DNA from: an uncultured Gammaproteobacteria bacterium
Lineage (GTDB): Bacteria; Patescibacteriota; Microgenomatia; CAZETR01; Amesbacteraceae
Direction: 5' to 3'
Length of the DNA stretch: 64,000 nucleotides
Assembly (NCBI GenBank): GCA_964633995.1
Contig: CAZWKN010000004.1
Coordinates: 1,260 to 65,259, forward strand
The position numbers were made by a program, and so were the translations under genes. Positions 4,486 to 63,970 of the stretch are shown piece after piece; the stretch's first letter is position 1, and each line of letters starts with the position of its first letter. Under the pieces are notes generated by a model. That model was not told the origin of the DNA, made no database searches, and worked only from the letters and a program-made list of their open reading frames with translations.

Positions 4486-5242
4486 CTGGTTTGAGTTTGA
4501 GAGCAAAATAGAGACATTGGGTGGAACTTTGGGCACTGTGGTTTTTGCCAGGGGGAAGGACAAGTGGACGAATAGAAAGAAAGGGAACATCGTAGCCTTT
4601 TGGGTAAACATCAAGGGTGATGGCCTGGTTGTTTCTAGTCCGTAATGCATATTTTGCGTCGACTAAGGTGTTTATGGCAGTTTGCCAATGTAGATAGGCG
4701 AGTTCAGGATTGCCTTCTATTGAATACGCTGCGTTGCTGTGAAAGGGAGAATCATCTGGTGATTTGGGGTCTAGGGTCCACAGGGGGAAAATGATTTCAG
4801 TTACTTGAGGGTTTTCGACATGGGGTGAGACGGCTGAATTTTCACCCAATAATTGTAAGCCGGAAGTAATAATTTCTAAGTCTTGGTCGTGTATGTTAAC
4901 AACGGTTTTTGAAGGTTGTTGATCTTCGAGCCATAAGACTTGGCCTTGAAATTTGACAGGGTTAATGGCATTGAGATCCAGGTTGGAATTTGGGACAGGA
5001 GAAAAAAAGACAGATTCGTTTTGGCGAAGTATGGTATCCCTGCGGTCAGCCTCAATTCGGTCGGGCCAGGGGACACGGTGGACGGCCCAGGAATCGTAAG
5101 TTACGATATCCCTTCTTAGCTCTTCGGGCAAATCCGGCCAAGAGACTCTCTTGGCTACGAGATCGTTGGCCGCTCTGTAATTGGAGTGGGTAGACATTCG
5201 ATGAACAGAATCAAAAAACGATTGGGTGAATAATTCAGGCAT
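4454..5242 (-). CDS. hypothetical protein (262 aa)
   Basis: Intact ORF with no recognisable motif. Its 3' end converges on, and overlaps, the permease end by about 30 nt. Confidence 0.45.
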   Translation of the reverse strand: MPELFTQSFFDSVHRMSTHSNYRAANDLVAKRVSWPDLPEELRRDIVTYDSWAVHRVPWPDRIEADRRDTILRQNESVFFSPVPNSNLDLNAINPVKFQGQVLWLEDQQPSKTVVNIHDQDLEIITSGLQLLGENSAVSPHVENPQVTEIIFPLWTLDPKSPDDSPFHSNAAYSIEGNPELAYLHWQTAINTLVDAKYALRTRNNQAITLDVYPKGYDVPFLSIRPLVLPPGKNHSAQSSTQCLYFALKLKPVTPTSKPQLD

Positions 5243-5279
5243 AGGCGGATATTAAAGTATAAGCGTTATACTGTCAAAC

Positions 5280-5308
5280 TTGACGGACGTTGCCGACAGT
5301 GTTAGACT
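5280..5308 (+). promoter_or_regulatory. candidate sigma70 promoter (TTGACG-17-TAGACT) for the TrmB gene, near-leaderless
   Basis: The -35/-10 spacing is 17 bp. The -10 ends 7 nt before ATG 5315. Confidence 0.3.
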
Positions 5309-5314
5309 AAAGCT

Positions 5315-6172
5315 ATGGATATGATAGAAAAGGTATTGGGAGAGCTGGGGTTATCGGAAAATGAGATAAAGATTTATCGGGCTGCTGTCAGGCATGAGGA
5401 AACGTCACCATATGCTCTATCTAGGGAGACAAATATTCCTAGGACGACTGTGTACGAGGCTATAATGAATTTGGCCCTTAAGGGCTTGGTGACATTGGTT
5501 AAGAGTGATGGTTTTACCAAACAGCAGACAAGAATTGTGGCTAAGAACCCATCTACACTTAGGGAGATCATACGGAATAGTAGGGAGAGATTGACCAGGT
5601 TGGAGGTAGATGTTGTGCAAATATTACCGGATTTGAAGGCGGAATATTTAAAAACTGTGCCTAATGCCCAGGTGAGGTTTTTTTCAGGAATTGAGGGGGC
5701 GGGCGAGGTGTATGGGCGGGTGTATTCGGGCAGGTTGGGTGTATCGGTAGTGGGATGGGATTCTATGATGCCGATGGACAGTTTTGGAAGCAAAAAAATT
5801 AACAAATGGGTGGATCAGGATTTGGATGCTCGAAAATCTGAGAAAAGCATAGTCTTGCTGAATGATTGGACTAAGCATGTAATTGGATACCAGTATGGGA
5901 GGGATAAGAGGTATTTGGATAAAGAATTTAGGTATATTGACGATTCAGGGTGTGTGTTTAACCAAGATATCTATGTGATAGGTGGGTCTGTTTTTGTGGT
6001 AAACGGTTTTAAAGACGAGGCGTGGGGAATGGTAATAAATAGCGAATTATTCGCTCAAACAATGAAATCTATGTTTGAGGTGATGTGGCGGGTGGCTAGG
6101 CCAATCACTGAAGAAATGGTAAAAAGTTGGGGTGAAAACGAGTATTTAAATGAGGAAAGACGAAGGAAATGA
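5315..6172 (+). CDS. TrmB-family transcriptional regulator (N-terminal wHTH)
   Basis: LGLSENEIKIYRAAVRHEETSPYALSRETNIPRTTVYEAIMNLALKGLV is typical of the TrmB HTH. Confidence 0.7.
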   Translation: MDMIEKVLGELGLSENEIKIYRAAVRHEETSPYALSRETNIPRTTVYEAIMNLALKGLVTLVKSDGFTKQQTRIVAKNPSTLREIIRNSRERLTRLEVDVVQILPDLKAEYLKTVPNAQVRFFSGIEGAGEVYGRVYSGRLGVSVVGWDSMMPMDSFGSKKINKWVDQDLDARKSEKSIVLLNDWTKHVIGYQYGRDKRYLDKEFRYIDDSGCVFNQDIYVIGGSVFVVNGFKDEAWGMVINSELFAQTMKSMFEVMWRVARPITEEMVKSWGENEYLNEERRRK

Positions 6173-6354: not shown

Positions 6355-6428
6355 GGGCCCGTAGTTCACCTGGCTAGAACGCGTCATTTGCAATGACGAG
6401 GTAAGCGGTTCGAGTCCGCTCGGGTCCA
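6355..6428 (+). tRNA. tRNA-Ala (anticodon TGC)
   Basis: Acceptor GGGCCCG/CGGGTCC with a G3:U70 pair, anticodon loop tTTGCAa, T-loop TTCGAGT. Confidence 0.9.
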
Positions 6429-7020
6429 CTAAACCTAAAAGTTGGTCCCGACTTCCTCTTGTGGGGAGTCGAGATCAGCTTTGAGGCTGAATCTGGCGAA
6501 ATCCAGATGAGTAGCTCATTGAAAAGTGAAGAGAATTTAATAAGTAGTAGAGTCGTATTTTTTACTTCCGTAATGCAGACAATGGATGCCTAGGATGCTA
6601 GAGCCGAAGAAGGACGTACATAGCCACGAAAGTCGTCGGGGAGCTGCTAAGAAGCTTTGATCCGGCGGTATCCGAATGGGGAAACCCCTCCTATATGGAG
6701 AGTCCGCCGTAAGGCGAGATGGGGCACGTCCCGAACTGAAACATCTAAGTAGGGACAGGAAAAGAAATCACAGAGATTCCGTAAGTAAGCAGCGAGCGAA
6801 AGCGGAACAGCCTAAACCACGCCGCAAGGCGATGGGGTTGCGGGGTCCGCCGCAAGCAATTGATCGAGGATAGGAGAATCCCGTGGAAACGGGAACCAAA
6901 GCAGGTGATAGTCCTTTATCCGAAATCTAAGATCATGCTGGCGGATTCCCAAGTACCATGAGACACACGATCTTGTGGGAATCCGGGGTGACCACACTCC
7001 AAGGCTAAATACTTTAGCAT

Positions 7021-7061
<41 letters not shown>

Positions 7062-7751
7062 GGGTTAAAAACCTAGTGAAATAGAACCTGAAATTGTCTG
7101 CTGGCAAACAGTGAGAGCCCTGTCCCGCAAGGGGTGGGGTGATCGCGTGCCTATTGAAGAATTATCCGGCGAGTTTTCGATTGTTGCGAGTTTAAGCACG
7201 TCAAACGTGTGGAGGCGAAGCGAAAGCGAGTCTTAACAGGGCGCATAGCAGCAGTTGGAAGACCCGAAACCTGGTGAGCTAATCATGAGCAGGGTGAACC
7301 CCGATGAGAATCGGGGGGAGGCCCGAACTCGTTAGAGCTACAAATCTATGAGATGACTTGTGATTAGAGGTAATATGCCAATCGAACCAGGAGATAGCTG
7401 GCTCTCCCCGAAATATATATAGGTATAGCCCTAAAGCCAACTGATATGTGGTAGAGCACTGGATGCTTTCTGCAGCTTCACCGCTGTTGCGAGCAATCAA
7501 ACTCCGAATACGTATCAGAGTGCTTTGGGAGTCAGAACGACCCGGCTAAGCGGGCCGCTCTAAAGGGAAACAACCCAGACTGTCGTCTAAGGCCTCTAAA
7601 TAATGACTTAGTGTTGAACGCAGTTGAATTCCTCAGACAGCCAGGAGGTTGGCTCAGAAGCAGCCATCCTTTAAAGAAAGCGTAACAGCTCACTGGTCGA
7701 TTTGGGAGTTTGGCGCGGAAAATGAACCGAGGCTCAAGTCATTTGCCGAAG

Positions 7752-7848
7752 ACACAGATATTCGTGCTTCGCACAAAATTTATCATTTGTCATTTTACAT
7801 TTGATCATTCAATTGATGAAATGAAAAATGTTTAAATGGTTAATTTCG
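7752..7848 (+). other. AT-rich roughly 95-nt insertion in 23S helix 45 (IVS-like expansion)
   Basis: It replaces the short helix-45 tip (E. coli about 1170) between CCGAAG... and ...GGTAGGGGAGCGTT. At roughly 80% AT it contrasts with the flanking rRNA. Confidence 0.45.
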
Positions 7849-8596
7849 CGCGGAGCGCGGATGTGGTAGGGGAGCGTTGAAAGAGCTGTGAAGCATACGC
7901 CGTAAGGCGGTGTGGAGCGACTTCAAGTGAGAATGCCGGAATGAGTAGCGTTAACTCCGATGAGAATTCGGAGCGCCGAATACCCAAGGTTTCCTCCGCA
8001 ACATTTATTGTCGGAGGGTTAGTCGGCACCTAAGGTGAGGCCATAGTGGGCGTAACCGATGGACGAGCCGTTTAGATTCGGCTACATAAAATATATCGTT
8101 ATGAGCTAGGGACGGACTGAAAAGGAGTATCCAGGCGCATGCAGTGAATGTGGCGTCTAAGCAGTGAGATAGTGAACTTAGGAAAATCCGAGTTTGCGTT
8201 TTAAGTCGAGCTGTTATGGGAAGACTTGCGAGAAATTGTGAGACAACCTGGAGTGCTTCATTTTACGAGAAAATGTTCGTAGCCAGATGTATTTTATGCC
8301 GTACCGCAAACCGACACTGGTGGGTGGGTCGAGTAGACCAAGGCGTTCGGGAGAAGGTAGTTCAAGGAACTCGGCAAAAAAGCTGGACGTAATCTAGAGA
8401 GATGTCCTTCCCGCCTTTGGCGGGACGCAGCAAAAGCTTATTCCTCGACTGTTTAACTAAAACACAGGTCCATGCAAACTCGAAAGAGAAAGTATATGGG
8501 CTGAGGCCTGCCCAGTGCTCGTAAGTTAAGTGGATGGGTGTTAAAGCCCTGAAATGAAGCCCGAGTGAACGGCAGCAGTAACTATAACTGTTCTAT

Positions 8597-8638
<42 letters not shown>

Positions 8639-9148
8639 CGGCTTAACGAGGGAATAACTGTCTTGAACTATCACCCGGCGAAATTGAAATGGCTGTGAAG
8701 ATGCGGCCTAACTCTACTAGGACAAAAAGACCCTATGGAGCTTTACTGTACTCTGGCCCTGTTTCGGATTTTAAAATAGTTTAGTGTAGGAGGGAGCCTT
8801 CGGGCGACAATGAAACACCTCTCGTTTTGGAATCTCGAAACTAACCTATGCCGTCTGGAAACGACGGTGGAGACAAGGTCAGACGGGCAGTTTTACTGGG
8901 GAGGTATCCTGCTAAAGAGTAACGCAGGAGTGCCAAGGTGCTCTAAGCTCGGATGGAAATCGAGCTAGTCGTGTAACGGCATAAGAGCGCTTGACTGCGA
9001 GAGGGACACCTCGAGCAGGTGCGAAAGCAGGTCGTAGTGATCCTCGGATCCCTCGTGGGAGGGACCGGGCTTAACGGATAAAAGCTACCCTAGGGATAAC
9101 AGGCTGATCGCCGCCAAGAGTCCATATCGACGCGGCGGTTTGGCACCT

Positions 9149-9433
9149 TAACCAAATGGTATCGGGGTGTGTTGCCAGTAATGGCATTAGCAAGCTTTGT
9201 TATATGTATAATATTTTTTACTGACTCATATCGGAGAACTCCTTATAAAACGAACAATATAAGGAAAACCCCGAGGGAAGGCCGCCTATGGCGGCCCCCG
9301 TATCGACTTGTGGTTTCAAGACCACGGAGCCGTCTTTTTTAAGACGAGCTAAGACGTCAGCCCCTACTTTGGGTGAATTAACTTAAAGAGGGTGAAGGTA
9401 TAGTCAGCGCTTCGTGTAAACGAAGTCGACACG
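9149..9433 (+). ncRNA. candidate group I intron in 23S rRNA at the E. coli U2500-equivalent site
   Basis: The 285-nt insert exactly splits the conserved GGCACCU|CGAUGUCGG. The 5' exon ends in U and the insert ends in G. An internal guide GGGTG (9164-9168) can pair with exon CACCU with a U.G wobble at the splice site. No ORF is present. Confidence 0.5.
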
Positions 9434-9501
9434 CGATGTCGGCTCATCCTATCCTGGAGGGGCAGTACCTTCCAAGGGTCCGGCTGTTCGCCGGTTAAAA
9501 G

Positions 9502-9550
<49 letters not shown>

Positions 9551-9668
9551 AGTAGAATCGTGGAATTCTTGAGGGGGTCTGACCTCAGTACGAGAGGACC
9601 AGGTTGGAGGTATCACTGGTGTGCCGGTTGTGACGTCAGTTGCAGCGCCGGGTAGCTAAATACCTACG

Positions 9669-9701
<33 letters not shown>

Positions 9702-9902
9702 CTACCCAAGATTAGGAATTCATTCCGTCGCAAGATGGAAAAAGACCCGGGGAAGACTACCCCGTATAAGAGGCAGGCAGTGTAAGCACAGCAATGTGTT
9801 TAGCTTACCTGTACTAATCGGTCTAATGGAGTAAACTTACTAAACCCTATTACTTATTGTTCTCTTCACTTTTCAGTTAGTTACTTGCAAAGAGCGCAGA
9901 GT

Positions 9903-54725: not shown

Positions 54726-55967
54726 ATGGGAAAGACTGATGTGATTACATTGCCTCCTGGGACCAAGGTGCCTAACCATATTGCGATGATACTGGATGGA
54801 AACAGGCGGTGGGCGCGGGCGAGAGGATTAAAACCTTGGGAAGGGCACGCAGCGGGGTATCAAGCAATTAAGGAGTTGTCTGAGGCCACAAGAATGCTGG
54901 GAGTACATACGTTTACGGTTTGGGCGTGGTCTACGGAGAATTGGGAGAGGTCAGAAGTGGAAGTAAGTGAGATTATGAAATTGTTGAGGATGGGTTTGGA
55001 CGAGATGGAACCCGATTTGCACAGAGAGAAGATAAGGTTGGTGCATTTGGGGCGAAAGGATAGGTTGCCGAAAGATGCTCTCGAGCATATTGCTAGGCTT
55101 GAGGCGGAGACGAAACAATACAACGACTCGCATGTATTTAACATTGCTTTGGATTATGGTGGTAGGGATGAGCTGGTGAGGGCGGTTAAACAAGTTATCA
55201 CTGATCAGGTATCAGTTGATCAGTTGGATGTGAAAGTGTTTGAGAAATATTTGGATACGTGTGATCAACCTTATCCCAATGTAGATTTGTTTATCAGGAC
55301 CAGCGGAGAGCAGAGAACATCGGGACTTTTGCCTTGGCAGATGGACTATGCAGAATATTATTTTGAACAGGACCATTTACCGGATTTTAGTCCGGAAAAG
55401 TTGCGGGAAGCGATAATGGATTTTTCTAGGCGCAGGAGGCGGTTTGGGGCTAATGACAAAGAGGAGCATTTAAGGTTCAACCCCAAAATAGTGGCTGATT
55501 TAGAGGTTAAATGGAGACATGCTTTGGCGGGGGGAGAGACGGAGAGATTAAGAGATTTAGTGATTAAGTATGTGGGTGAGCAGTATGGATTGTCGAAGGA
55601 GCTGGCGTATGATGCTGGAGTAAATTTGGCCAAGGCGTTGATGTACAGGCGACAGGAAAATTGGGTAGAGGCTAAAAAAGCACTGGTGGGGTTGTATGGA
55701 ATTGTACAAAAAACGTTGAAATTGGCATTTGAGCCGGAGGTAATTGCTAATATTGAAGTGAATTTGTGGAACCCTCCTTTGCGGGACGCTTCGGAAGGGC
55801 AAGAGGGGCGGTGGCAAATGTATTTGGCAGAGAAATACAGGATTTCTAAGTTGCAGGCGGCTAAATCAGCTCATTTGGCGGTGTTGGCGGAGCGGGAGGT
55901 TGATCCCAAAAAACAAAAAGGATATTTGGAAATGTTTTACGAAGCACTGAAAGAAAGAGTGGCCTAG
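54726..55967 (+). CDS. uppS: isoprenyl transferase (undecaprenyl-diphosphate synthase family) with roughly 170-aa C-terminal extension
   Basis: HIAMILDGNRRWA, FTVWAWSTENWER, and RTSGEQRTSGLLPWQ (the RxSG...W of cis-prenyltransferases). Confidence 0.85.
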   Translation: MGKTDVITLPPGTKVPNHIAMILDGNRRWARARGLKPWEGHAAGYQAIKELSEATRMLGVHTFTVWAWSTENWERSEVEVSEIMKLLRMGLDEMEPDLHREKIRLVHLGRKDRLPKDALEHIARLEAETKQYNDSHVFNIALDYGGRDELVRAVKQVITDQVSVDQLDVKVFEKYLDTCDQPYPNVDLFIRTSGEQRTSGLLPWQMDYAEYYFEQDHLPDFSPEKLREAIMDFSRRRRRFGANDKEEHLRFNPKIVADLEVKWRHALAGGETERLRDLVIKYVGEQYGLSKELAYDAGVNLAKALMYRRQENWVEAKKALVGLYGIVQKTLKLAFEPEVIANIEVNLWNPPLRDASEGQEGRWQMYLAEKYRISKLQAAKSAHLAVLAEREVDPKKQKGYLEMFYEALKERVA

Positions 55968-55974
55968 GGATACT

Positions 55975-56725
55975 CCTTTAAGGACAGTTCTTTCAAAGAT
56001 CGAGGGTGAGAGATGATATTTGGGAGAGGGAGGGTTCGTCGATTTGCGAGTTTTCGACAAAACTAGAGTAGGAATTGAATCCTGATTTGGCAAAATAAGA
56101 TAAAATTGCTTGTGGTTTGAGCCAATCTTGTTTGATAAAGCCGAGATAGTTTCGATAAGATGATGGTTGGGGACACTCTTGTAAGGACTGTCCTTTTTGG
56201 AAAGGATTGAGGTGAATATAGCGAGATAGGTGGAGCAGTTGTTGTTCTGAATCTACAAGGACCGCCTTGTAAGCATCCTGAAAAAGTGGTCCTACTCTGT
56301 GGTTGTTTCTATGGTTAAAATACTGGACGTAGCGGGTGCAAAGAGAGCGCATAAACATTTCTATAGTTCTGGGAACGGTTTGTTTGACTAAAAGATGGAA
56401 ATGATTGGGCATTAGGCAATAGGCTAGTAAATCGAGTTGATTGGAAAAATTGTTGAGTCGAATTAGTTTTTTGGCATCTGCCTTTTGATAGGGAGTAGAT
56501 GTGGGGTTGGTTAATACCTGAAGGAGTTTGTCTAAGTCTTTGGGGGAAAGATATTCTTTGAGATATGAGAGGAAAACGGACTCATCCTGTTTGTCTGAAA
56601 AAATTGCTCGCTTTTCGACACCGCGGTTGTAGATGTGGTAGTAGCCGTTTTCGTGATACTCTTTGATCTTGTTCTTGGCGGGCACAAATTTAGGATACTC
56701 TTGAAAGGACTGTCCTTTCAAGAGT
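55975..56725 (-). mobile_element. putative IS200/IS605-like element (HUH transposase gene bounded by palindromic hairpins)
   Basis: GAAAGGACTGTCCTTTC perfect palindrome at 56703-56719, just upstream of the gene. A related palindrome lies at 56183-56196 and a degenerate copy (AAGGACAGTTCTTT) at 55981-55994, just past the stop. Overall size about 750 bp. Confidence 0.45.
55993..56685 (-). CDS. IS200-like HUH (Y1) transposase-family protein, paralog B
   Basis: YYHIYNRGV, HUH as PNHFHLL, YKAV, and IHLNP. Start proposed at GTG 56683-56685, equivalent to MPAK of paralog A. The annotated 368-aa ORF has a 140-aa low-complexity N-terminus overlapping the neighbouring gene. Confidence 0.6.
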   Translation of the reverse strand: MPAKNKIKEYHENGYYHIYNRGVEKRAIFSDKQDESVFLSYLKEYLSPKDLDKLLQVLTNPTSTPYQKADAKKLIRLNNFSNQLDLLAYCLMPNHFHLLVKQTVPRTIEMFMRSLCTRYVQYFNHRNNHRVGPLFQDAYKAVLVDSEQQLLHLSRYIHLNPFQKGQSLQECPQPSSYRNYLGFIKQDWLKPQAILSYFAKSGFNSYSSFVENSQIDEPSLSQISSLTLDL

Positions 56726-56742
56726 TGGAATTGTGATAGAAT

Positions 56743-57792
56743 TTGGGGATGGCGAGTGATTTGGGGCAGAAGGCAAAGAAAACGTTGGAAGCGTTTGTGC
56801 CGGAGATAGATAAGCGAATTGCTGAGTATTTTGACGAAGAAATAAAAAAAGATTTCGGGTTTAATGAGAAACAGAAAAAGTTGGATAGGGAGATTTTGGA
56901 ACACGCAAAAGAATACATTCTGCGTCCGACGAAGAGAATCAGAAGTTCGTTTGTGCGTTATGGAGCAAGGTTGGGTGGAGAAGAATGTGATTGGGGTGCT
57001 GCTGTGGGGGTGGAGTTGGTACATGCAGGGCTTTTGATGCATGACGATTTTATGGATAACGATAGTTTTAGGCGGGGAGGGTTGACAACCCATGAACATT
57101 TTAAAAAAGTAATGAATGATTCACACCTGGGGGATGCTATGGCGGTTACGGTGGGAGATGCAATGTTGTTTATGGGCTTAGAGCTTATTTCTAATAGCGA
57201 CAACAGACCGGCAATGAAACAGATGTTGAGAGGGTTGGCAAATACTGGTTATGGCCAGGCTTACGATGTTGGTTTGGAAGCACTTAAGGAATGGACAGAA
57301 GACGATGTGATCGTTTTGCACAAGGCAAAGACGGCGATTTATACGTATGAGAATCCGTTGTTTATTGGGGCGCATTTGGCCGGTTTATCAAAAGAGGTTT
57401 TTGAAATTTTGCATGAATATTCTATGGATGGTGGGGTGGCATTTCAGTTGCAAGATGATATTTTGGGAGTGTATGGGAGTCCAGAGAAGACGGGAAAGAG
57501 TGCAGATTCGGATCTAAAACAGGGAAAATGTACCCTGATGGTGCTTAAGGCGTGGGATTGTCCAGAAGTGCATAAAGTTTGGGGTGATCAAAATGCAACG
57601 AGAGAGGATCTGGATGCGGCTAAAAAAGCCATATTGGACTGCGGGGCGTATGAATATAATAAAAAATTGGCCAGAGAGTATGCGGCAAAAGCGGCTAGGA
57701 CGGCAGAGAAATTGCGTAAATTTGAGTTAAATTCAGAAGCGATTGATTTCATCCAGGGTATTGCTGAGTATATGGTGGAGAGAGAAGTATAA
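56743..57792 (+). CDS. trans-polyprenyl diphosphate synthase (FPP/GGPP synthase family)
   Basis: First Asp-rich motif LLMHDDFMDNDSFRRG and second motif LQDDILG. Confidence 0.85.
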   Translation: MGMASDLGQKAKKTLEAFVPEIDKRIAEYFDEEIKKDFGFNEKQKKLDREILEHAKEYILRPTKRIRSSFVRYGARLGGEECDWGAAVGVELVHAGLLMHDDFMDNDSFRRGGLTTHEHFKKVMNDSHLGDAMAVTVGDAMLFMGLELISNSDNRPAMKQMLRGLANTGYGQAYDVGLEALKEWTEDDVIVLHKAKTAIYTYENPLFIGAHLAGLSKEVFEILHEYSMDGGVAFQLQDDILGVYGSPEKTGKSADSDLKQGKCTLMVLKAWDCPEVHKVWGDQNATREDLDAAKKAILDCGAYEYNKKLAREYAAKAARTAEKLRKFELNSEAIDFIQGIAEYMVEREV

Positions 57793-57803
57793 ATTTGCCG
57801 GCT

Positions 57804-57861
57804 TGTCATCCCGACTAAGCGTAGCGCATGGAGGGATCCCTCGACTTCGCTCGGGATGACA
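57804..57861 (+). other. long hairpin (11-bp perfect stem tgtcatcccga/tcgggatgaca, 36-nt loop with an internal gagggatccctc palindrome)
   Basis: Lies between the polyprenyl synthase gene and the next gene. No T-run follows. Confidence 0.3.
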
Positions 57862-57876
57862 TAGTATAGTAGTACT

Positions 57877-58599
57877 ATGAACTGCCCGGGTTGTGGAGGA
57901 GAGCTGAATCCCATATCGGTTATGGGGTTTGATGATTCATATAGGTGTAGGAAATGTGGTGGTTTTTGGTTGGAATCTTGGATGGTTAATCAATTGCCCG
58001 AAAAAGATTTGGATCATGTGGTTCCGCTCAAAGTAGAAAATGCCCCCGATGGGGAAGGATTGTGTCCGGTGGATAAGGTAAGAATGACAGCGCTTGCGGG
58101 AGAAAATATTCCGACCGGACTTGTAATTGAAAAATGTGAGAAGTGTGGGTGGTGGTGGTTTCCAAAAGATAGTCTATTTGGCTTTAAGCAGGCATATGAC
58201 CTGAAGAAGAACTATCTGAAAGTATGGGGAAAGAAATCCGAGCAGGCGATGTTTGTATTGCCTGCACTGTTTACACTGGTTTTGGTAATCGGGCTTTCGG
58301 TGGGAGTGATAAAAGTAAAGAACAGGCAAAATACTGACGTGTCGGCGTCTTCGGAAGTGACGGGATTTGGGTCTGTTTATTTGGGAGCAGGCAGGACGAG
58401 TGTGGTGTTTCGGTCGAGTGGAAAAGTGTCGCAAGTATATTATAAAAAGGCTGGCGAGATAGACTGGAACAGTGCGGGGGTATCGGAAGACAATGGTTTA
58501 TATACTGCTGATTTAAAGTGGTTGGATTCTGATACGAACTACGTAGTTAAGGTATTGGAAAAGGAGTTTAAATTTAAAACCGGGAGGCAGGATTTATGA
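57877..58599 (+). CDS. Zn-ribbon/TM/extracytoplasmic-domain protein, paralog 1
   Basis: CPGCGG...CRKCGG and CP...CEKCGWWW ribbons, a single TM, and a 90-aa C-terminal domain. Confidence 0.55.
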   Translation: MNCPGCGGELNPISVMGFDDSYRCRKCGGFWLESWMVNQLPEKDLDHVVPLKVENAPDGEGLCPVDKVRMTALAGENIPTGLVIEKCEKCGWWWFPKDSLFGFKQAYDLKKNYLKVWGKKSEQAMFVLPALFTLVLVIGLSVGVIKVKNRQNTDVSASSEVTGFGSVYLGAGRTSVVFRSSGKVSQVYYKKAGEIDWNSAGVSEDNGLYTADLKWLDSDTNYVVKVLEKEFKFKTGRQDL

Positions 58600-59312
58600 A
58601 ATGTCCGGGATGTGGAGGACCTTTGAATGAAGTTTCAATTGCCGGTTTTGATCGGTCTTTTAGGTGTTATACCTGTGGGGGATTTTGGACTCAATCGTGG
58701 GTGGTAAATCGGATGTCGCCACGGTCTATGGACAGATGGATGCCGGTTATTGTAGATGCCGATCTTTTAAAAATGGGAACCATGGTGTGTCCGACAGATT
58801 TGACGCCGCTAACCCGGTTTACTGGTGAAAGCATGCCAACTAATTTGCCGGTCGAAAAATGTGATAAGTGTGGGTGGTGGTGGTGGCCGGAGGATACGCT
58901 GTTTAGATATAAGCCGGCACAAGAAGCGAAGATTAATTATTTTAAATTGTGGGGGAAAGCCGCAGACGCGACAGCCCTAATACTGCCAGTTATGAGTGTG
59001 GTTTTGTTGATTGTGGGGGCGGCCATAGGGGTAGGGTTGGTAAAAGTGCGACAAGAATCGAGCATAAACGCTTCGGGTTACGCGAGGGCTTTTTTTGCGA
59101 CGTATTTGGGGAATGGACGGGAGTTTATTAGTTTCCAGTCGATGCAAAAAATTGACAGTGTGGAATATCAGGCGAAAGGGTTGGCTTATTGGACTAAAAT
59201 GAATGTGTCTTCTGAAAATGGGGTATATACACTTGAGATAAAGAATCTAAAAGAGGGGGAGAGGTACAGCGTGAGAATTTTGGGGAAAGAATTCGAATTT
59301 GTGGCTAGGTAG
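58596..59312 (+). CDS. Zn-ribbon/TM/extracytoplasmic-domain protein, paralog 2
   Basis: Same architecture (CPGCGG...CYTCGG, CDKCGWWWW). ATGA overlap with paralog 1. Confidence 0.55.
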   Translation: MKCPGCGGPLNEVSIAGFDRSFRCYTCGGFWTQSWVVNRMSPRSMDRWMPVIVDADLLKMGTMVCPTDLTPLTRFTGESMPTNLPVEKCDKCGWWWWPEDTLFRYKPAQEAKINYFKLWGKAADATALILPVMSVVLLIVGAAIGVGLVKVRQESSINASGYARAFFATYLGNGREFISFQSMQKIDSVEYQAKGLAYWTKMNVSSENGVYTLEIKNLKEGERYSVRILGKEFEFVAR

Positions 59313-59508
59313 TTTTGGGGGTCATGCCCAAAAGCCAAAGGACTGCTTCCTTTTTGTACCTGCGATCGCCTCGAGAGTTGATTCTGATTGGTGTAAGTTT
59401 GCCGCGTTTGCCCCAGCGCTTGATGGTGAGAGTGGAAACCCGAAGGACTTCTGCTACTTCGCGGACGGTGAGGAGGTCAGGGAGTTCGGTGAGACTTAAA
59501 GAAGCCAT
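59305..59508 (-). CDS. excisionase/MerR-like HTH_17 DNA-binding protein (67 aa)
   Basis: LLTVREVAEVLRVSTLTIKRWGKRGKL helix-turn-helix. Confidence 0.6.
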   Translation of the reverse strand: MASLSLTELPDLLTVREVAEVLRVSTLTIKRWGKRGKLTPIRINSRGDRRYKKEAVLWLLGMTPKTT

Positions 59509-59555: not shown

Positions 59556-60938
59556 ATGGTTTATACTAAGAATGACGTGAATGTTTCTAAATTATCTTTG
59601 TGGTTTCAGATAGTTTTGGTGGTTTTTTTTATCATCTCATTGTTGATAATTGTTCGGTTGTTTCCCAAAAAACAATCATTTCATACCCAAGCTGCGGCTT
59701 GTTCGGATTTTTCAACCCAAGTTATTTGTTCTGCTCAGCCAAATTGTAGGTGGCAATTAGGCCAACTTGTTAATTGTAGTGGGGTTCCTCCTTGTCAAAG
59801 TTCTTCCTGTACTATTCAAGACAATTATTCCCAATGTAATTCGAGTTGGGTTGATTTACGGTGTACTAGTCGTTCAGGTTGCTCTTTTGCAGAGGTTAGA
59901 CGACAATGTTCGGGTTTGACGCAAACCCAGTGTCAGGCCACAGTTTTCTGCTCACCCCTGACGACGGCGTGCGCTTTTTCGGGTGGTGTATGCCCCACTG
60001 GTTGTAATTATGGTGCCGCATCTGCTGCAAAGTGTTGGGGCAGATCAGGTTGTGAACGTAATACTAGCCAAACTTCGTGTTTAACCTATAGCTGTCAGTG
60101 GACACCGAGTAAGCCTGCGACCTGTACAGGATCTCGATATACCGGATGCGGAGGGGGGAGTTGGCTTGAAAGTACCACTTGTTCTGGTACTTATATTTCT
60201 TCCAGATCGTGTGCTGGTAGTTACACATCTGCGGGATCTTGTGTGTCAGTTCCGCCTACAGCCATACCCACTCCCACACCCGTTCCGCCTACTCCTGTCC
60301 CTGTCGCAAATTGCAACACATCGATTCCGGCAAATGATTACATAGCATATTATCTTTATCATCTTACCGGACCTGAATCTTTTGCTGCTGGAGCATTGCG
60401 GTGGACGGGAAATCTGGGTAAAAACTACGGCAAAGAGTGTTATTGGGATGTGGTGAATCAATCTTATCAGAGAGGCGTAGATCCGGGATTTACTCTAGCG
60501 GTGTGGTTGCATGAGAGCGGTGCTAGTAACTATGTTCGTTTTGCACCTAATCCAGTACTCGATTTTGGAGTTCTGGGTTCGAATAATAACAATTTAAGTA
60601 TACAACTGGGTGCTTTCTTGGGATTGCCGGCACATTATTTAAGCGGGTGTAGTGCGGAAATATCTTCTGGAAAACTGCCGATGGAGGTATTTGTTTCTAA
60701 GTTCACTTCTGGTTATTGTAATCCTGATACAAATGCCGATGTTCGCTTAAGGGTGGATGGTTATATTCAAAAACTTCGAAACATATATCCCATGGCTACT
60801 AGTGATCCATTCCCAAATTATCCTACAGCTATCTCAAGTGAGGTTCGCCGGGTTGTTATTCCATCTCCCACGCTAGTAAAAACTACACCATTGCCGAAAT
60901 TTCCAATGATGAACACTGATTTGGAAACAGGTTTTTAA
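59556..60938 (+). CDS. membrane-anchored Cys-rich secreted protein with possible lysozyme-like/SLT C-terminal domain
   Basis: N-terminal TM. About 40 Cys in the first 230 aa. PT linker, then AVWLHESGASNY...APNP...DFGVLG, reminiscent of the transglycosylase ES...GLMQ core. Confidence 0.45.
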   Translation: MVYTKNDVNVSKLSLWFQIVLVVFFIISLLIIVRLFPKKQSFHTQAAACSDFSTQVICSAQPNCRWQLGQLVNCSGVPPCQSSSCTIQDNYSQCNSSWVDLRCTSRSGCSFAEVRRQCSGLTQTQCQATVFCSPLTTACAFSGGVCPTGCNYGAASAAKCWGRSGCERNTSQTSCLTYSCQWTPSKPATCTGSRYTGCGGGSWLESTTCSGTYISSRSCAGSYTSAGSCVSVPPTAIPTPTPVPPTPVPVANCNTSIPANDYIAYYLYHLTGPESFAAGALRWTGNLGKNYGKECYWDVVNQSYQRGVDPGFTLAVWLHESGASNYVRFAPNPVLDFGVLGSNNNNLSIQLGAFLGLPAHYLSGCSAEISSGKLPMEVFVSKFTSGYCNPDTNADVRLRVDGYIQKLRNIYPMATSDPFPNYPTAISSEVRRVVIPSPTLVKTTPLPKFPMMNTDLETGF

Positions 60939-63900
60939 GGCGATCCAGTAGCTGGTCCAAACCGTACGGCAGAACCTTCGTTGTATAGACGTTTCACTTG
61001 AGATGAAGATTGGGGATAGTTGTAAATTTGGACATTGTCTATTTGGCCGGTAAAGAAATCGCTAGCTCCGTCGGCTGATCCGATATAAAAAGATCTCGTA
61101 GTTAGAGACGAGGGGGATCCAGCTGGTGCTCCAGCGGTGTTGCCATTTACATAGAGAGTATTGGTGCCGGCATTGTTGACCCAAACGACATGTTGCCAGC
61201 TATTTAGACTAATTCTATTGTCTAGTCCGTAGTTACATGAAGCACCGTTGACGCACAAGGAAAGAGAAGCGTTTGTCTGGCGAATATAAAAAGTATAACC
61301 AGCTGTGCCACTATCGCGGGATACTATTGTGGGGAATCCTCCACCCCAACTGGTGGGATAAATCCATGCGGAAATTGTAAAATTGGTGGTTAGATTAAAA
61401 TTGGCATCTGTAGCCACTGACACCTGGTCATTTGTGCCGTCGAAGCCGAGTGATGAATTGTATTTTCCAGTAGTTCCGTCGTTCCACATTTCAGTGGTAG
61501 TGCCACTACTACATGATCCGACTGTATCGTTGTCTCCAGTTGTGTCGCCGGGAGTAATGGTGCCGTTCATGCCGGCGGCTTGGCCTTGGGAGTTGAGGGC
61601 GGCATTATAAGCGGTGGCGCCACTACATTCGTCAAATTTGTACCAGGCAATAGGCGCGCCTTGGTTATACAAATATTCGACTTGTGCTTTGGTGAGAGCA
61701 GAGCGAAAAATGCGGACATCGTCTATTTTCCCAGTAAATTCGTTGGCGGTACCGCATCCACCTGAAGCTTGAGCGTCGGTACCTATGCACAATCCTAGGG
61801 TATTGGAGAGTGAGCCAATTTCGGTGGGACTTGCACAATTTGTACAGCTTTCGTAGGTGTTGTATTCTACTCCGTTAAGATAGATGGCTGAACCAGCGAG
61901 GGTGGAATTATCAAATACGCCCACGATGTGATACCACTGGTTGAGAGTGTCGGTGCTGTGGTCTGGAGTACATACCTCGTATTGGTCTGAACCACCAGCA
62001 GTACCGTCGGACAGGTAGAAACATGTATTGCCACCATCGGTGTTATACCACCAGGATATATCGTAACCTGTTTCTGATGCTGTCCAAATTGAATCTTTCT
62101 TGGAAACAATTTGGGCGTCTTGGGTGTTAGCGGTGGGGTAAATCCATACAGAGATAGAAAATGAATCACCATCGGCGATATTTATGTTGTCTCCAAAAGA
62201 GACGTAGTCACTAGTGCCGTCGAACGTAACGGCGGATCCGATTTCGCCTTGGGTAAACGCAGTGTTTCCACTAAACGCACCGTCTATGCCTCCGCTCGAA
62301 GTGTCGCAAACATCGTTGGCGCCACCCGAGCAAGTGTTGGGTGTATTTTCGTCCATTTTCCATTGAGCAACCGCTGCTGGGAGTGAGAAGCCTTTGTCCG
62401 TATGGTCGTCAACTCCTCCCAACGTTATAGATGAATTGGCGTTCATGTCGAGTAGGACCTCAGAGGGGGAGAGGGCAGATCTGTATATTTTTACTTCGTC
62501 GATGTCGCCTGCGAATGAATTGGTGGCATCACCGTCATCGTCTCCTATGTACAACGCAGTTGCGTTTTCCAGGGAACCTGTGGCCGAGAGGCTGGTGTCC
62601 TGGCCTGCTAGTTTGCCGTCTACATACAGGTTTAATTTGCCTGAGGCGATATCCCTGATACAGACAACATGGTGCCAGGTGGCGTCGTAATAATCTGTCG
62701 TCGTCGTTGCCGTGTCTTCGGGATATGAGGTGGTGTCATCGTCCAGATCACAGGTAAGTAGTCCCGTGGAGTTGGCAAAGTACATTCTGTATCCTGCTAC
62801 GTTGCCGGCGGCTTTCTTTTGGATGATTACTTCGTCGTTGGTCACGGGATTAGTTGCCGAGTCGGACTTAACCCACATGCTTAAGGAGAAATCCGTACTG
62901 GCTGCAAAATCAAAATCGGCATCATCGGCACGAGACGCCCAGATGGAGCCAGTCCCATTCCAGGCACCACTATATTTACCGCTTGTAGTCCAGGAGGCAG
63001 AGGAAAGAGTGAGATCGTTGTTATTGTCAGTCAAATCATTAACATTAGTTCCTTGCATGTCATTAAAACTCCAACGAGATACATAGCTTCCTACAGGACT
63101 TCCTCCTGCAGGGTGACCGCCGTTCATATCCTCAATGATTTGCTTGGAAGTGCGGGCGTAGTTGTAGACACGTAGGTCATCGAGGTACCCGTATAGTTCC
63201 TGCGTAGTGTTGCAATTGGCGCCAGCGCCAAAAATTCCCAAACAAGCGACGTTGGTGTTGGCTAGAGAGCCGACGTTGGCCAGCGTGCCTGAAGTGGTGG
63301 TAGTTTGAGCAATACCATTGATATAGATGAGGTTGTTGGCAGAATTATTGCGATCGATTACTCCGGCTACGTGATACCAATTATTTAGGGCCATCGAGGA
63401 AGCCGAGGCGTAGATAAAATAAATATCTGTGCCGTCACTAATTTTCATACAGATTTGATTGGGTACGGTATCAGAAATTTGGCAGGTGGTACTGGAGCCT
63501 AAGAAAAAGGTCATGCCTGCACTAGTGCCATTTTGTTTGGAAATAATAGTGGAAGGATTGTTGAATGAAGCCAGACCTGCCAGGTTTATCCAGAAATCTA
63601 CTGAAATACTATTGGTGTCACTAAAATCAAGTGCATTGTTATCGCCCAGATTTATTGCTGAATCGCTCGTATTGCCATTAAAGTATAAAGAGGATCCGAT
63701 TTTCCCCGGGAGCCATTTGGGGCTGTTTACAAAAGATCCTGCAGAGCCGTTACCTGTGGCGTCGGTGACGCTGGTGCCCGTGTTTTCATCCAGTTTCCAC
63801 CAGCCTACTGGTCCGGGGGCGAAGGAGTAGAGAGCGGAGACTTCGGCAGGTGAGAGGGCGCGGTTGTAAATGCGTATTTCGTCCATTTTCCCGGTGTTGT

Positions 63901-63970
63901 TTAGATATGCTCCATTAGCTCGACCAACTTCAAATGCAGTAGCGTTGACGGCTGTGGTTGTGGTTACCAC
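60935..63970 (-). CDS. giant surface protein with five tandem LamG/concanavalin-A-like lectin domains
   Basis: The LamG_3 C-terminal signature recurs five times (MDEIRIYNRALSPAEVSALY, LDDLRVYNYARTSKQI, IDEVKIYRSALSPSEV, IDDVRIFRSALTKAQV, IDNVQIYNYPQSSSQV). An in-frame stop lies immediately upstream of GTG 63970. Confidence 0.7.
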   Translation of the reverse strand: MVTTTTAVNATAFEVGRANGAYLNNTGKMDEIRIYNRALSPAEVSALYSFAPGPVGWWKLDENTGTSVTDATGNGSAGSFVNSPKWLPGKIGSSLYFNGNTSDSAINLGDNNALDFSDTNSISVDFWINLAGLASFNNPSTIISKQNGTSAGMTFFLGSSTTCQISDTVPNQICMKISDGTDIYFIYASASSMALNNWYHVAGVIDRNNSANNLIYINGIAQTTTTSGTLANVGSLANTNVACLGIFGAGANCNTTQELYGYLDDLRVYNYARTSKQIIEDMNGGHPAGGSPVGSYVSRWSFNDMQGTNVNDLTDNNNDLTLSSASWTTSGKYSGAWNGTGSIWASRADDADFDFAASTDFSLSMWVKSDSATNPVTNDEVIIQKKAAGNVAGYRMYFANSTGLLTCDLDDDTTSYPEDTATTTTDYYDATWHHVVCIRDIASGKLNLYVDGKLAGQDTSLSATGSLENATALYIGDDDGDATNSFAGDIDEVKIYRSALSPSEVLLDMNANSSITLGGVDDHTDKGFSLPAAVAQWKMDENTPNTCSGGANDVCDTSSGGIDGAFSGNTAFTQGEIGSAVTFDGTSDYVSFGDNINIADGDSFSISVWIYPTANTQDAQIVSKKDSIWTASETGYDISWWYNTDGGNTCFYLSDGTAGGSDQYEVCTPDHSTDTLNQWYHIVGVFDNSTLAGSAIYLNGVEYNTYESCTNCASPTEIGSLSNTLGLCIGTDAQASGGCGTANEFTGKIDDVRIFRSALTKAQVEYLYNQGAPIAWYKFDECSGATAYNAALNSQGQAAGMNGTITPGDTTGDNDTVGSCSSGTTTEMWNDGTTGKYNSSLGFDGTNDQVSVATDANFNLTTNFTISAWIYPTSWGGGFPTIVSRDSGTAGYTFYIRQTNASLSLCVNGASCNYGLDNRISLNSWQHVVWVNNAGTNTLYVNGNTAGAPAGSPSSLTTRSFYIGSADGASDFFTGQIDNVQIYNYPQSSSQVKRLYNEGSAVRFGPATGSP

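Follow-up and report, generated by a model that had tools for sequence, protein, structure and literature searches.

The window, a stretch of 64,000 nucleotides of contig CAZWKN010000004.1 (assembly GCA_964633995.1), harbors two neighboring open reading frames (ORFs), ORF A and ORF B, that encode two related proteins of about 240 amino acids (aa) each and are followed by a convergent gene for a small helix-turn-helix (HTH) protein (Table 1). A first-pass annotation, made from the letters of this DNA alone, had described A and B as a translationally coupled tandem pair, and both ORFs as well as their overlap are confirmed: the start codon ATG of ORF B overlaps the stop codon TGA of ORF A in the tetranucleotide ATGA at positions 58596-58599, and the GGGAGG Shine-Dalgarno sequence of ORF B sits within the 3' end of ORF A. 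BLASTP aligns the two proteins over 235 aa with 43% identity (E 2e-77), in agreement with the earlier estimate of about 45%. The common architecture that had been proposed is also real, with the zinc-binding motifs followed by a single hydrophobic helix and then about 85 aa. The parts come in the same order in A and B, namely two zinc ribbons (ZnR1 and ZnR2), a juxtamembrane helix, one transmembrane (TM) helix and a beta-sandwich, and the identity between the paralogs amounts to 66% in ZnR1, 51% in ZnR2, 46% in the juxtamembrane helix, 29% in the TM helix and 38% in the ectodomain. For this anatomy and for the family assignment of both proteins our confidence is high.

Pfam recognizes only the first ribbon, which is matched by PF13453 (Zn_ribbon_TFIIB) with an E-value of 2e-7 and 30.7 bits in ORF A, above the gathering score of 22, and with an E-value of 5e-4 and 19.7 bits in ORF B, slightly under that score; precomputed PF13453 matches are present on relatives as well. 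Conservation was counted in an alignment of 150 full-length family members. ZnR1 has four Cys residues in A, in B and in nearly all family members, with C24 and C27 being invariant (150/150) and C3 being Cys in all 136 ungapped rows. In ZnR2, C63 and C87 are each conserved in 149 and C90 in 126 of the 150 members, and position 66 is occupied by Asp in 104, by Cys in 45 and by His in one of them. ZnR2 therefore usually displays a Cys-x2-Asp in place of a Cys-x2-Cys pair, with the Asp as candidate zinc ligand. Of the motifs named in the first-pass annotation, CPGCGG...CxxCGG and C[ED]KCGWWW are indeed found, whereas in the second ribbon the first knuckle reads C-P-x-D instead of CxxC.

The AlphaFold2 (AF2) model of ORF A, calculated from a 14-sequence alignment, has a predicted local distance difference test (pLDDT) score of 82 and contains two three-stranded ribbons. 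Residues 1-122 of B, modeled from 29 sequences, show beta strands in the ribbons as well (pLDDT 88.7, predicted template modeling score 0.80), and because of these values the two ribbons together with the juxtamembrane helix can be assumed to form one compact module. The zinc modules are PF13453-type beta ribbons. A PDB sequence search with a two-sequence profile of A and B gave no match, and the same search with a 29-sequence family profile retrieved ZifS (8yoz) at E 6e-4 plus marginal FN3 matches; a close solved analogue of the double-ribbon module was not found.

The juxtamembrane helix is among the best-conserved segments of the family. It reads [FY]KPAQEAK[IV]NYFKLWG in relatives, and its conserved columns are K104, A106, K110, Y113, and W117. 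The start of the TM helix (LLP...G) also belongs to the best-conserved stretches, and in the AF2 model of A a long helix of aa 99-158 includes the TM segment. Lys and Arg residues average 4.4 on the N-terminal and 1.7 on the C-terminal side of the TM helix in the 150 members. Because of this bias it is most likely that the N-terminus is inside and the C-terminus outside, so that the zinc ribbons would face the cytoplasm and the sandwich the other side of the membrane. As far as can be judged from sequence, it is thus strongly indicated that A and B are N-in/C-out bitopic proteins with a cytoplasmic double ribbon and an extracytoplasmic FN3-like domain.

The sandwich of A is predicted to consist of seven strands with a pLDDT of about 90, and Foldseek against the PDB finds CBM56, FN3 domains, and the N-domains of purple acid phosphatases (PAPs) at E-values of about 1e-3. 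At the sequence level the ectodomains of A and B stay under threshold (fn3 with E 0.2 for B), and distant family members carry PF16656 (Pur_ac_phosph_N-like). According to the model the ectodomain is FN3-like, an assignment that holds at the level of the fold.

A feature that is absent from the first-pass annotation is a near-invariant Ala (A157 of A, A159 of B), which is found in 141 of the 150 members. In 139 of these 141, position -3 is I, T, S, V, A, or L; position -2 varies, and the eight commonest residues at +1 do not include Pro. The resulting [ITSV]-x-Ala motif lies 8-16 aa past the hydrophobic run in the 150 members. In the AF2 model of A it falls into a low-confidence linker (aa 150-158, pLDDT below 50). 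The motif is retained in the short forms of the family, which end 5-9 residues beyond it. The motif resembles a signal-peptidase site and can be regarded as a candidate for such a site.

Table 1. Positions of the tandem pair, the parts of its proteins and the accompanying features in the window.
Feature	Position	Strand	Description	Basis
UppS-like gene	54726-55967	+	413 aa	Pfam; clade synteny
Polyprenyl synthase gene	56743-57792	+		Pfam; clade synteny
Imperfect palindrome	57805-57860		Between polyprenyl synthase gene and ORF A	Fold, sequence, relatives
ORF A	57877-58599	+	240 aa, A-type paralog	ORF list, sequence, PF13453, AF2 model, tree
A, ZnR1	57877-57975	+	aa 1-33; ligands C3, C6, C24, C27	PF13453 match aa 2-33
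A, ZnR2	58057-58167	+	aa 61-97; C63, D66, C87, C90, then GWWWF	
A, juxtamembrane helix	58168-58245	+	aa 98-123; Lys/aromatic	Conserved columns, modeled helix
A, TM helix	58246-58317	+	aa 124-147; conserved Pro129, Gly139	Hydrophobic run
A, [ITSV]-x-Ala motif	58339-58347	+	V155-S156-A157; candidate signal-peptidase-type site	Family alignment
A, ectodomain	58357-58581	+	aa 161-235; predicted extracytoplasmic seven-strand beta-sandwich, FN3/PAP-N-like	AF2, Foldseek
ORF B	58596-59312	+	238 aa, B-type paralog, architecture as ORF A	ORF list, sequence, BLASTP against A
B, parts			ZnR1 aa 1-33; ZnR2 aa 63-99; TM aa 126-149; I157-N158-A159; beta-sandwich about aa 163-236	
HTH gene	59305-59508	-	67 aa, MerR-type winged HTH, HTH only, BldC-like size; 3' end overlaps that of ORF B by 8 nt	

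Distribution of the family and history of the paralogs

A word-indexed search with A returned A alone and missed even B, which reflects the limited sensitivity of that search and is no evidence for an orphan status. The search with ORF B gave 12 relatives with 35-55% identity, and an exhaustive profile search found 369 representative clusters (50% identity) at E<=1e-3, of which 127 are at E<=1e-10 and 41 at E<=1e-30, with nearly all matched family members being 230-260 aa long. The single named member is a "zf-TFIIB domain-containing protein" of Candidatus Gottesmanbacteria, a Microgenomates lineage of the candidate phyla radiation (CPR), and we read the whole family as one of Microgenomates/CPR. 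In the databases this uncharacterised family goes by its domain name alone. NCBIfam, PADLOC, and PHROGs gave no family match for the membrane proteins A and B, no relatives were found in the viral contig collection, and a scan of genome contigs with A/B patterns that turned out too specific found only an unrelated single-ribbon protein of Gemmataceae (L002; loci are given here by their L numbers). The family is best filed as a new architecture among the bitopic zinc-ribbon membrane adaptors, in which PF13453 ribbons are combined with an FN3/PAP-N-like domain.

The duplication had been taken for an old one that is maintained in tandem, and this is supported by the phylogeny, since A and B belong to separate orthologous clades that are common to other genomes. 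In a neighbor-joining tree of the 158 shared N-terminal columns (100 bootstraps), A groups with the first-position copies of L003, L011, L018, and L019 with 91% bootstrap support, and B groups with the last copy of L003, to which it is 55% identical, with 100%, whereas A and B as sisters receive 0%. Therefore, the duplication is older than the split of these lineages, and both paralogous lineages have been kept. The number of copies varies between one and three, and some of them are short forms without ectodomain, which represent the sole copy in some genomes. Two long copies are present in the window as well as in L020 and L024; a short copy plus a long copy in L005, L006, L011, L012, L013-16, L018, and L029; and a long, a short and a second long copy in L003. 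One long copy is found in L007 and L022, and one short copy in L027/28 and apparently also in L026. The short forms arose independently at least twice. Within the arrays the family genes are separated by -4 to +23 nt, with the exception of L013-16, where the gap is about 425 nt. Some genomes do without the ectodomain or without a second copy, and the core function can therefore be assumed to reside in the ribbons plus the juxtamembrane and TM helices.

The convergent HTH gene and possible roles of the pair

The first-pass annotation had also reported a 67-aa HTH_17 protein that converges on the 3' end of the pair. This gene is there, and it proved to be a conserved neighbor of the family; a terminator-like site between the A-B genes and the HTH gene was not found. 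The protein matches MerR_1 (E 5.5e-10, 39.7 bits, cutoff 21.6), HTH_17 (E 3.6e-8, 34 bits, cutoff 27), the excisionase-domain model TIGR01764 (31 bits, cutoff 28.8), and PHROG excisionases, as well as HTH_BldC (NF033787) with E 7e-11 and 41.7 bits, which is under the NCBIfam cutoff of 77. The earlier designation as "excisionase-type" is hence appropriate for the HTH fold, but not for the role, as the gene belongs to the chromosome and is highly conserved, and neither in the window nor in its clade does an integrase or recombinase adjoin it. In most loci of the window's clade, HTH orthologs adjoin a family gene. In the window, L017, L022, and L027/28, the HTH gene overlaps the last family gene at the 3' end of the latter; in L011 and L014-16, inserted genes for secreted proteins displace the HTH gene by 2-4 kb. 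A clear ortholog is located directly upstream of the family gene and on the same strand in L035/36, a locus that has no other neighbor in common with the window, and L031/32 has an ortholog 3.2 kb upstream of the family gene. Over the conserved core, the HTH ortholog of a distant locus shares about 75% of its residues with the window protein (sequences read by eye), and HTH orthologs are in general about 75-88% identical where the family proteins share 25-55%. The 64-kb window contains one such HTH protein, and in the related loci it was found solely near the family gene. That the HTH gene is the sole neighbor recurring in a distant, differently arranged locus is suggestive, although a link between the HTH protein and the family is not established.

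Among characterised proteins, YdjG/SamG of Bacillus subtilis, which is encoded in pspA-ydjGHI (samGHI), appears from its published description to be the closest double zinc-ribbon membrane anchor that recruits a cytoplasmic partner. YdjG has two zinc ribbons and a TM segment (PMC11237479), and SamG is an integral membrane protein that mediates the membrane association of the SPFH protein SamI (bioRxiv 10.64898/2026.02.06.704340). The family described here likewise has two zinc ribbons and a TM segment. However, YdjG carries an NTF2-like, YpeB-related domain, whereas the only non-ribbon globular domain of the family is FN3-like, and the PspA, TPM-domain, and SPFH/band-7 proteins of the YdjG operon are present in none of the family contexts examined. 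Judged by gene context and domain content, the family members are not YdjG orthologs. A second precedent is ZitP of Caulobacter, a bitopic zinc-finger protein (PMC5182063) that belongs to a polarity module studied together with PopZ (PMC5182065). ZitP is alphaproteobacterial and has a single zinc finger, and no Pfam match of the ZitP kind is found in A or B. The zinc finger of ZitP, which is of the MJ0042 type, is cytoplasmic and binds PopZ, and the other domain, DUF3426, is located outside the membrane. ZifS (TTHA0897) of Thermus thermophilus, the protein of the PDB entry 8yoz, is a small soluble single-ribbon PF13453 protein and differs from the family, in which two ribbons, the second mostly with Cys-x2-Asp, are fused to a TM helix and an ectodomain. 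Literature searches for PF13453, zf-TFIIB, and TTHA0897 gave no result, and the one for ZifS yielded mainly materials-science papers on "ZIFs" and none on the function of the protein.

On the precedents of YdjG/SamG and ZitP, the reading that fits best is a generic one, which the first-pass annotation had named beside the anti-sigma factors and in which A and B would act as membrane-tethered adaptors or signal transducers; by analogy it is quite possible, and we adopt it tentatively. The zinc-ribbon module would hold a cytoplasmic partner at the membrane, the ectodomain would touch a ligand in the envelope or at the surface, and both paralogs would probably act jointly via the conserved juxtamembrane and TM region. 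The best candidate for the partner would be the adjacent, highly conserved BldC-like HTH protein, but we regard this particular pairing as doubtful. BldC of Streptomyces is a 68-residue MerR-like DNA binder without dimerisation and effector domains (PMC5859096). The 67-aa HTH protein of the window, which consists of a MerR_1/HTH_17 domain only, is similar in this respect, but with 41.7 versus 77 bits it is outside the BldC family by the NCBIfam criterion.

Furthermore, the [ITSV]-x-Ala motif and the helix-breaking Pro and Gly residues of the TM helix hint at a control by signal-peptidase-type cleavage with subsequent intramembrane proteolysis, as in the RsiV/RsiP-type regulators. These are N-in/C-out bitopic proteins as well, and their degradation is started by site-1 cleavage through signal peptidase (PMC6066255, PMC8844934). 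With them the family shares a comparable small-x-Ala motif, which points to a possible cleavage, but it lacks their anti-sigma domain, sigma partner, and DUF4179/RsiV ectodomain. We regard such a proteolytic step as rather improbable. Several points weigh against the reading as adaptor or transducer and its extensions. Three distant contexts (L030, L033/34, and L037) have no HTH gene within 6-8 kb, the motif is farther from the membrane than the c-region of a typical signal peptide, many short forms have a Pro at position -2 of the motif, and the motif is retained in short forms with almost nothing past it. It would be more far-reaching still, and we consider it very unlikely, that all parts form a CPR-specific, sigma-independent trans-envelope pathway in which FN3-like sensing leads to cuts at the [ITSV]-x-Ala motif and in the TM helix and the BldC-like HTH protein is then freed or no longer sequestered. 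If this were true, the BldC-like HTH protein of the pathway may be a global regulator in reduced genomes.

CPR bacteria such as the Microgenomates have small genomes, a largely unknown envelope biology, and many conserved proteins without known function. The family is widespread in this group, keeps its architecture, occurs with two to three diverged copies in many genomes, and is found beside one of the best-conserved small DNA-binding proteins of these loci. If the link between envelope and regulator is true, it offers an experimentally approachable signaling route in a poorly understood group; if the proteins are only a structural anchor, they are one more lineage-specific membrane protein. 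What is gained is the delimitation of a family together with a map of its domains and its conserved motifs, the removal of the anti-sigma label, and a testable shortlist of partners.

An alternative role as accessory subunits of undecaprenyl or polyprenyl phosphate synthesis, in which the ribbons at the membrane would dock the soluble UppS-like and polyprenyl synthase enzymes, is suggested by the gene context and is unlikely in our view. The context was determined with a hidden Markov model of the family and the neighbor proteins of the window against six-frame ORFs of 29 loci. The block common to the window's clade is WecG - TyrRS (minus strand) - ProRS - UppS - polyprenyl synthase - family gene(s) - HTH (minus strand). 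Without exception, the family genes of this clade come after UppS and/or polyprenyl synthase in the same orientation, a synteny that extends over 20+ loci, and in the relatives the upstream prenyltransferase gene and the family gene lie end to end or overlap. The start of the family gene overlaps the stop of polyprenyl synthase by 4 nt in L006, L012, and L029, and the stop of UppS in L013-16. The extra C-terminal part of UppS of about 170 aa could be a docking site, and genes of the envelope or glycan kind (e.g., YkuD, NTP_transferase, GalT, and GT4) are found in the distant contexts as well. However, the stretch from WecG over TyrRS, ProRS, and UppS to polyprenyl synthase is wholly syntenic including the unrelated tRNA synthetases, so that adjacency may mean shared ancestry only. 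In the window itself, the coupling of polyprenyl synthase and ORF A is broken by an 84-nt spacer that bears a hairpin. Moreover, neither UppS nor polyprenyl synthase is near the family gene in any of five more distant contexts with a single copy each. As the association is gone there, it is read as clade synteny, and we have downgraded this alternative.

With a similarly low probability, A and B could be structural components of the surface or envelope, whose FN3-like ectodomain organises or anchors surface proteins of the cohesin/dockerin or LamG type or wall polymers and whose ribbons serve only as a cytoplasmic plug or oligomerisation module. The fold of the ectodomain, which is FN3-, PAP-N-, or CBM-like, would be in line with this, and envelope or surface genes recur nearby, namely genes for cohesin/dockerin-like, YkuD, sugar nucleotidyltransferase, GalT, GT4, and LamG proteins. 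Dockerin/cohesin-like genes are found upstream of the family gene in L033/34, and L035/36 has a cohesin/dockerin cluster with a PF16656 protein nearby. In the window, genes for a secreted protein rich in Cys and for a surface protein with five LamG domains come after the pair, and in L011 and L014 inserted genes for large secreted proteins separate the HTH gene from the family gene. The recurrence of envelope genes is a weak thematic hint toward the envelope, and the proximity to surface genes is weak evidence because such genes may be common in these genomes. Moreover, the ectodomain is less conserved and is missing from the short forms, which are the sole copy in some genomes, whereas the best-conserved features of the family are cytoplasmic or at the membrane.

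The first-pass annotation had compared the layout of the pair with zinc-dependent anti-sigma factors and had noted that no sigma factor is adjacent. The latter is correct, as neither the window flank nor any related locus examined contains a gene of the sigma-70 family, but the comparison itself has to be abandoned. A function as anti-sigma factors of the ZAS type is extremely unlikely, since nothing but the gross layout (cytoplasmic zinc site, one TM helix, outside domain) agrees with it: neither zf-HC2 (PF13490) nor any other anti-sigma family was found at E<=1 in the Pfam scan, an HxxxCxxC motif was not seen on reading A and B, and the zinc modules are modeled as PF13453 beta ribbons and not as the helical anti-sigma domain. 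The idea of a mobile-element cargo with the HTH protein as excisionase and the hairpin as element end can practically be dismissed. It has in its favor the matches to TIGR01764 and PHROG excisionases and a Y1 transposase gene 1.2 kb upstream, but the family has the same chromosomal position beside housekeeping genes in >20 related loci with no integrase nearby, relatives on viral contigs and PADLOC or PHROG families for the membrane proteins are lacking, the HTH protein is far better conserved than its neighbors, and both the hairpin and the transposase were inserted in this genome only.

Upstream insertions and further neighboring genes

The long hairpin that had been noted in front of the pair is a real fold, but it is not part of the system. 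Its outer arms comprise 11-12 bp, and the minimum free energy of the region 57790-57880 is -31 kcal/mol (z = -2.4). The window contains the palindrome GTCATCCCGA...TCGGGATGAC a single time, and all 37 loci from other organisms lack it. None of the relatives has the hairpin, and their family gene directly adjoins the gene upstream. A regulatory function was therefore rejected, and the hairpin is classed as a lineage-specific insertion outside the conserved system. A -10-like TATAGT at 57865-57870 ends 6 nt before the ATG of ORF A, and ORF A has no Shine-Dalgarno sequence. Given this short distance and the missing Shine-Dalgarno sequence, the mRNA of A may be leaderless or near-leaderless. The promoter scan as a whole gave no more sites than in shuffled sequence.

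UppS and polyprenyl synthase are adjacent or overlapping in most relatives. In the window, a Y1_Tnp (IS200/RAYT-like) gene on the minus strand, which extends from 55993 to about 56690, is inserted between the two (55968-56727). Two copies of a palindrome flank the insert: GGATACTCTTGAAAGGAC/TGTCCTTTCAAGAGT at 56697-56725, whose 14-nt arms are perfect, and an imperfect copy at about 55968-55998. The transposase gene and these palindromes together have the appearance of a REP/RAYT- or IS200-type arrangement. In this clade, the UppS (Prenyltransf) proteins, that is the one of the window (54726-55967) and its orthologs in L003-L028, are 391-416 aa long. The Pfam domain covers aa 22-241, and the C-terminal extension of about 170 aa has no Pfam match and is conserved across the clade.

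Dockerin/cohesin-like genes are located beside family members in two distant lineages (L033, 4060-7691; L035, 2248-5348). Those of L033/34 lie directly upstream of the family gene on the same strand with a gap of 5 nt, and the cluster of L035 contains an additional separate 197-aa protein with a weak PF16656 match. In the Gottesmanbacteria-type contexts, the genes that come after the family gene are unannotated and overlap its end. At the usual position of the HTH gene, L033/34 has a convergent gene for a 172-aa protein with a 30-nt overlap (L033, 7662-8180), and in L037 a same-strand gene for a 261-aa protein (4855-5640) follows the family gene. A cohesin-like ORF of 180 aa, judged by eye, comes after the HTH gene in L007 (6640-7182). 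Beyond the HTH gene, the window encodes at 59556-60938 a 460-aa protein without Pfam or NCBIfam match, which begins with a TM or signal segment and has a long Cys-rich region. On the opposite strand, at 60935-63970, comes a surface protein of >1000 aa that contains five Laminin_G_3 domains. In L022/23, too, the HTH gene is followed by a LamG ortholog.

At the other end of the window, a 23S rRNA gene (6560-9838) has 3279 nt compared to 2925 positions of the model and probably contains insertions. It is preceded by tRNA-Ala(TGC) at 6355, and no 16S gene is present in the 6.3 kb upstream. Genes for a MacAB-like ABC transporter and another coding gene are located between tRNA-Ile (521) and tRNA-Ala, and the rRNA genes appear to be unlinked.

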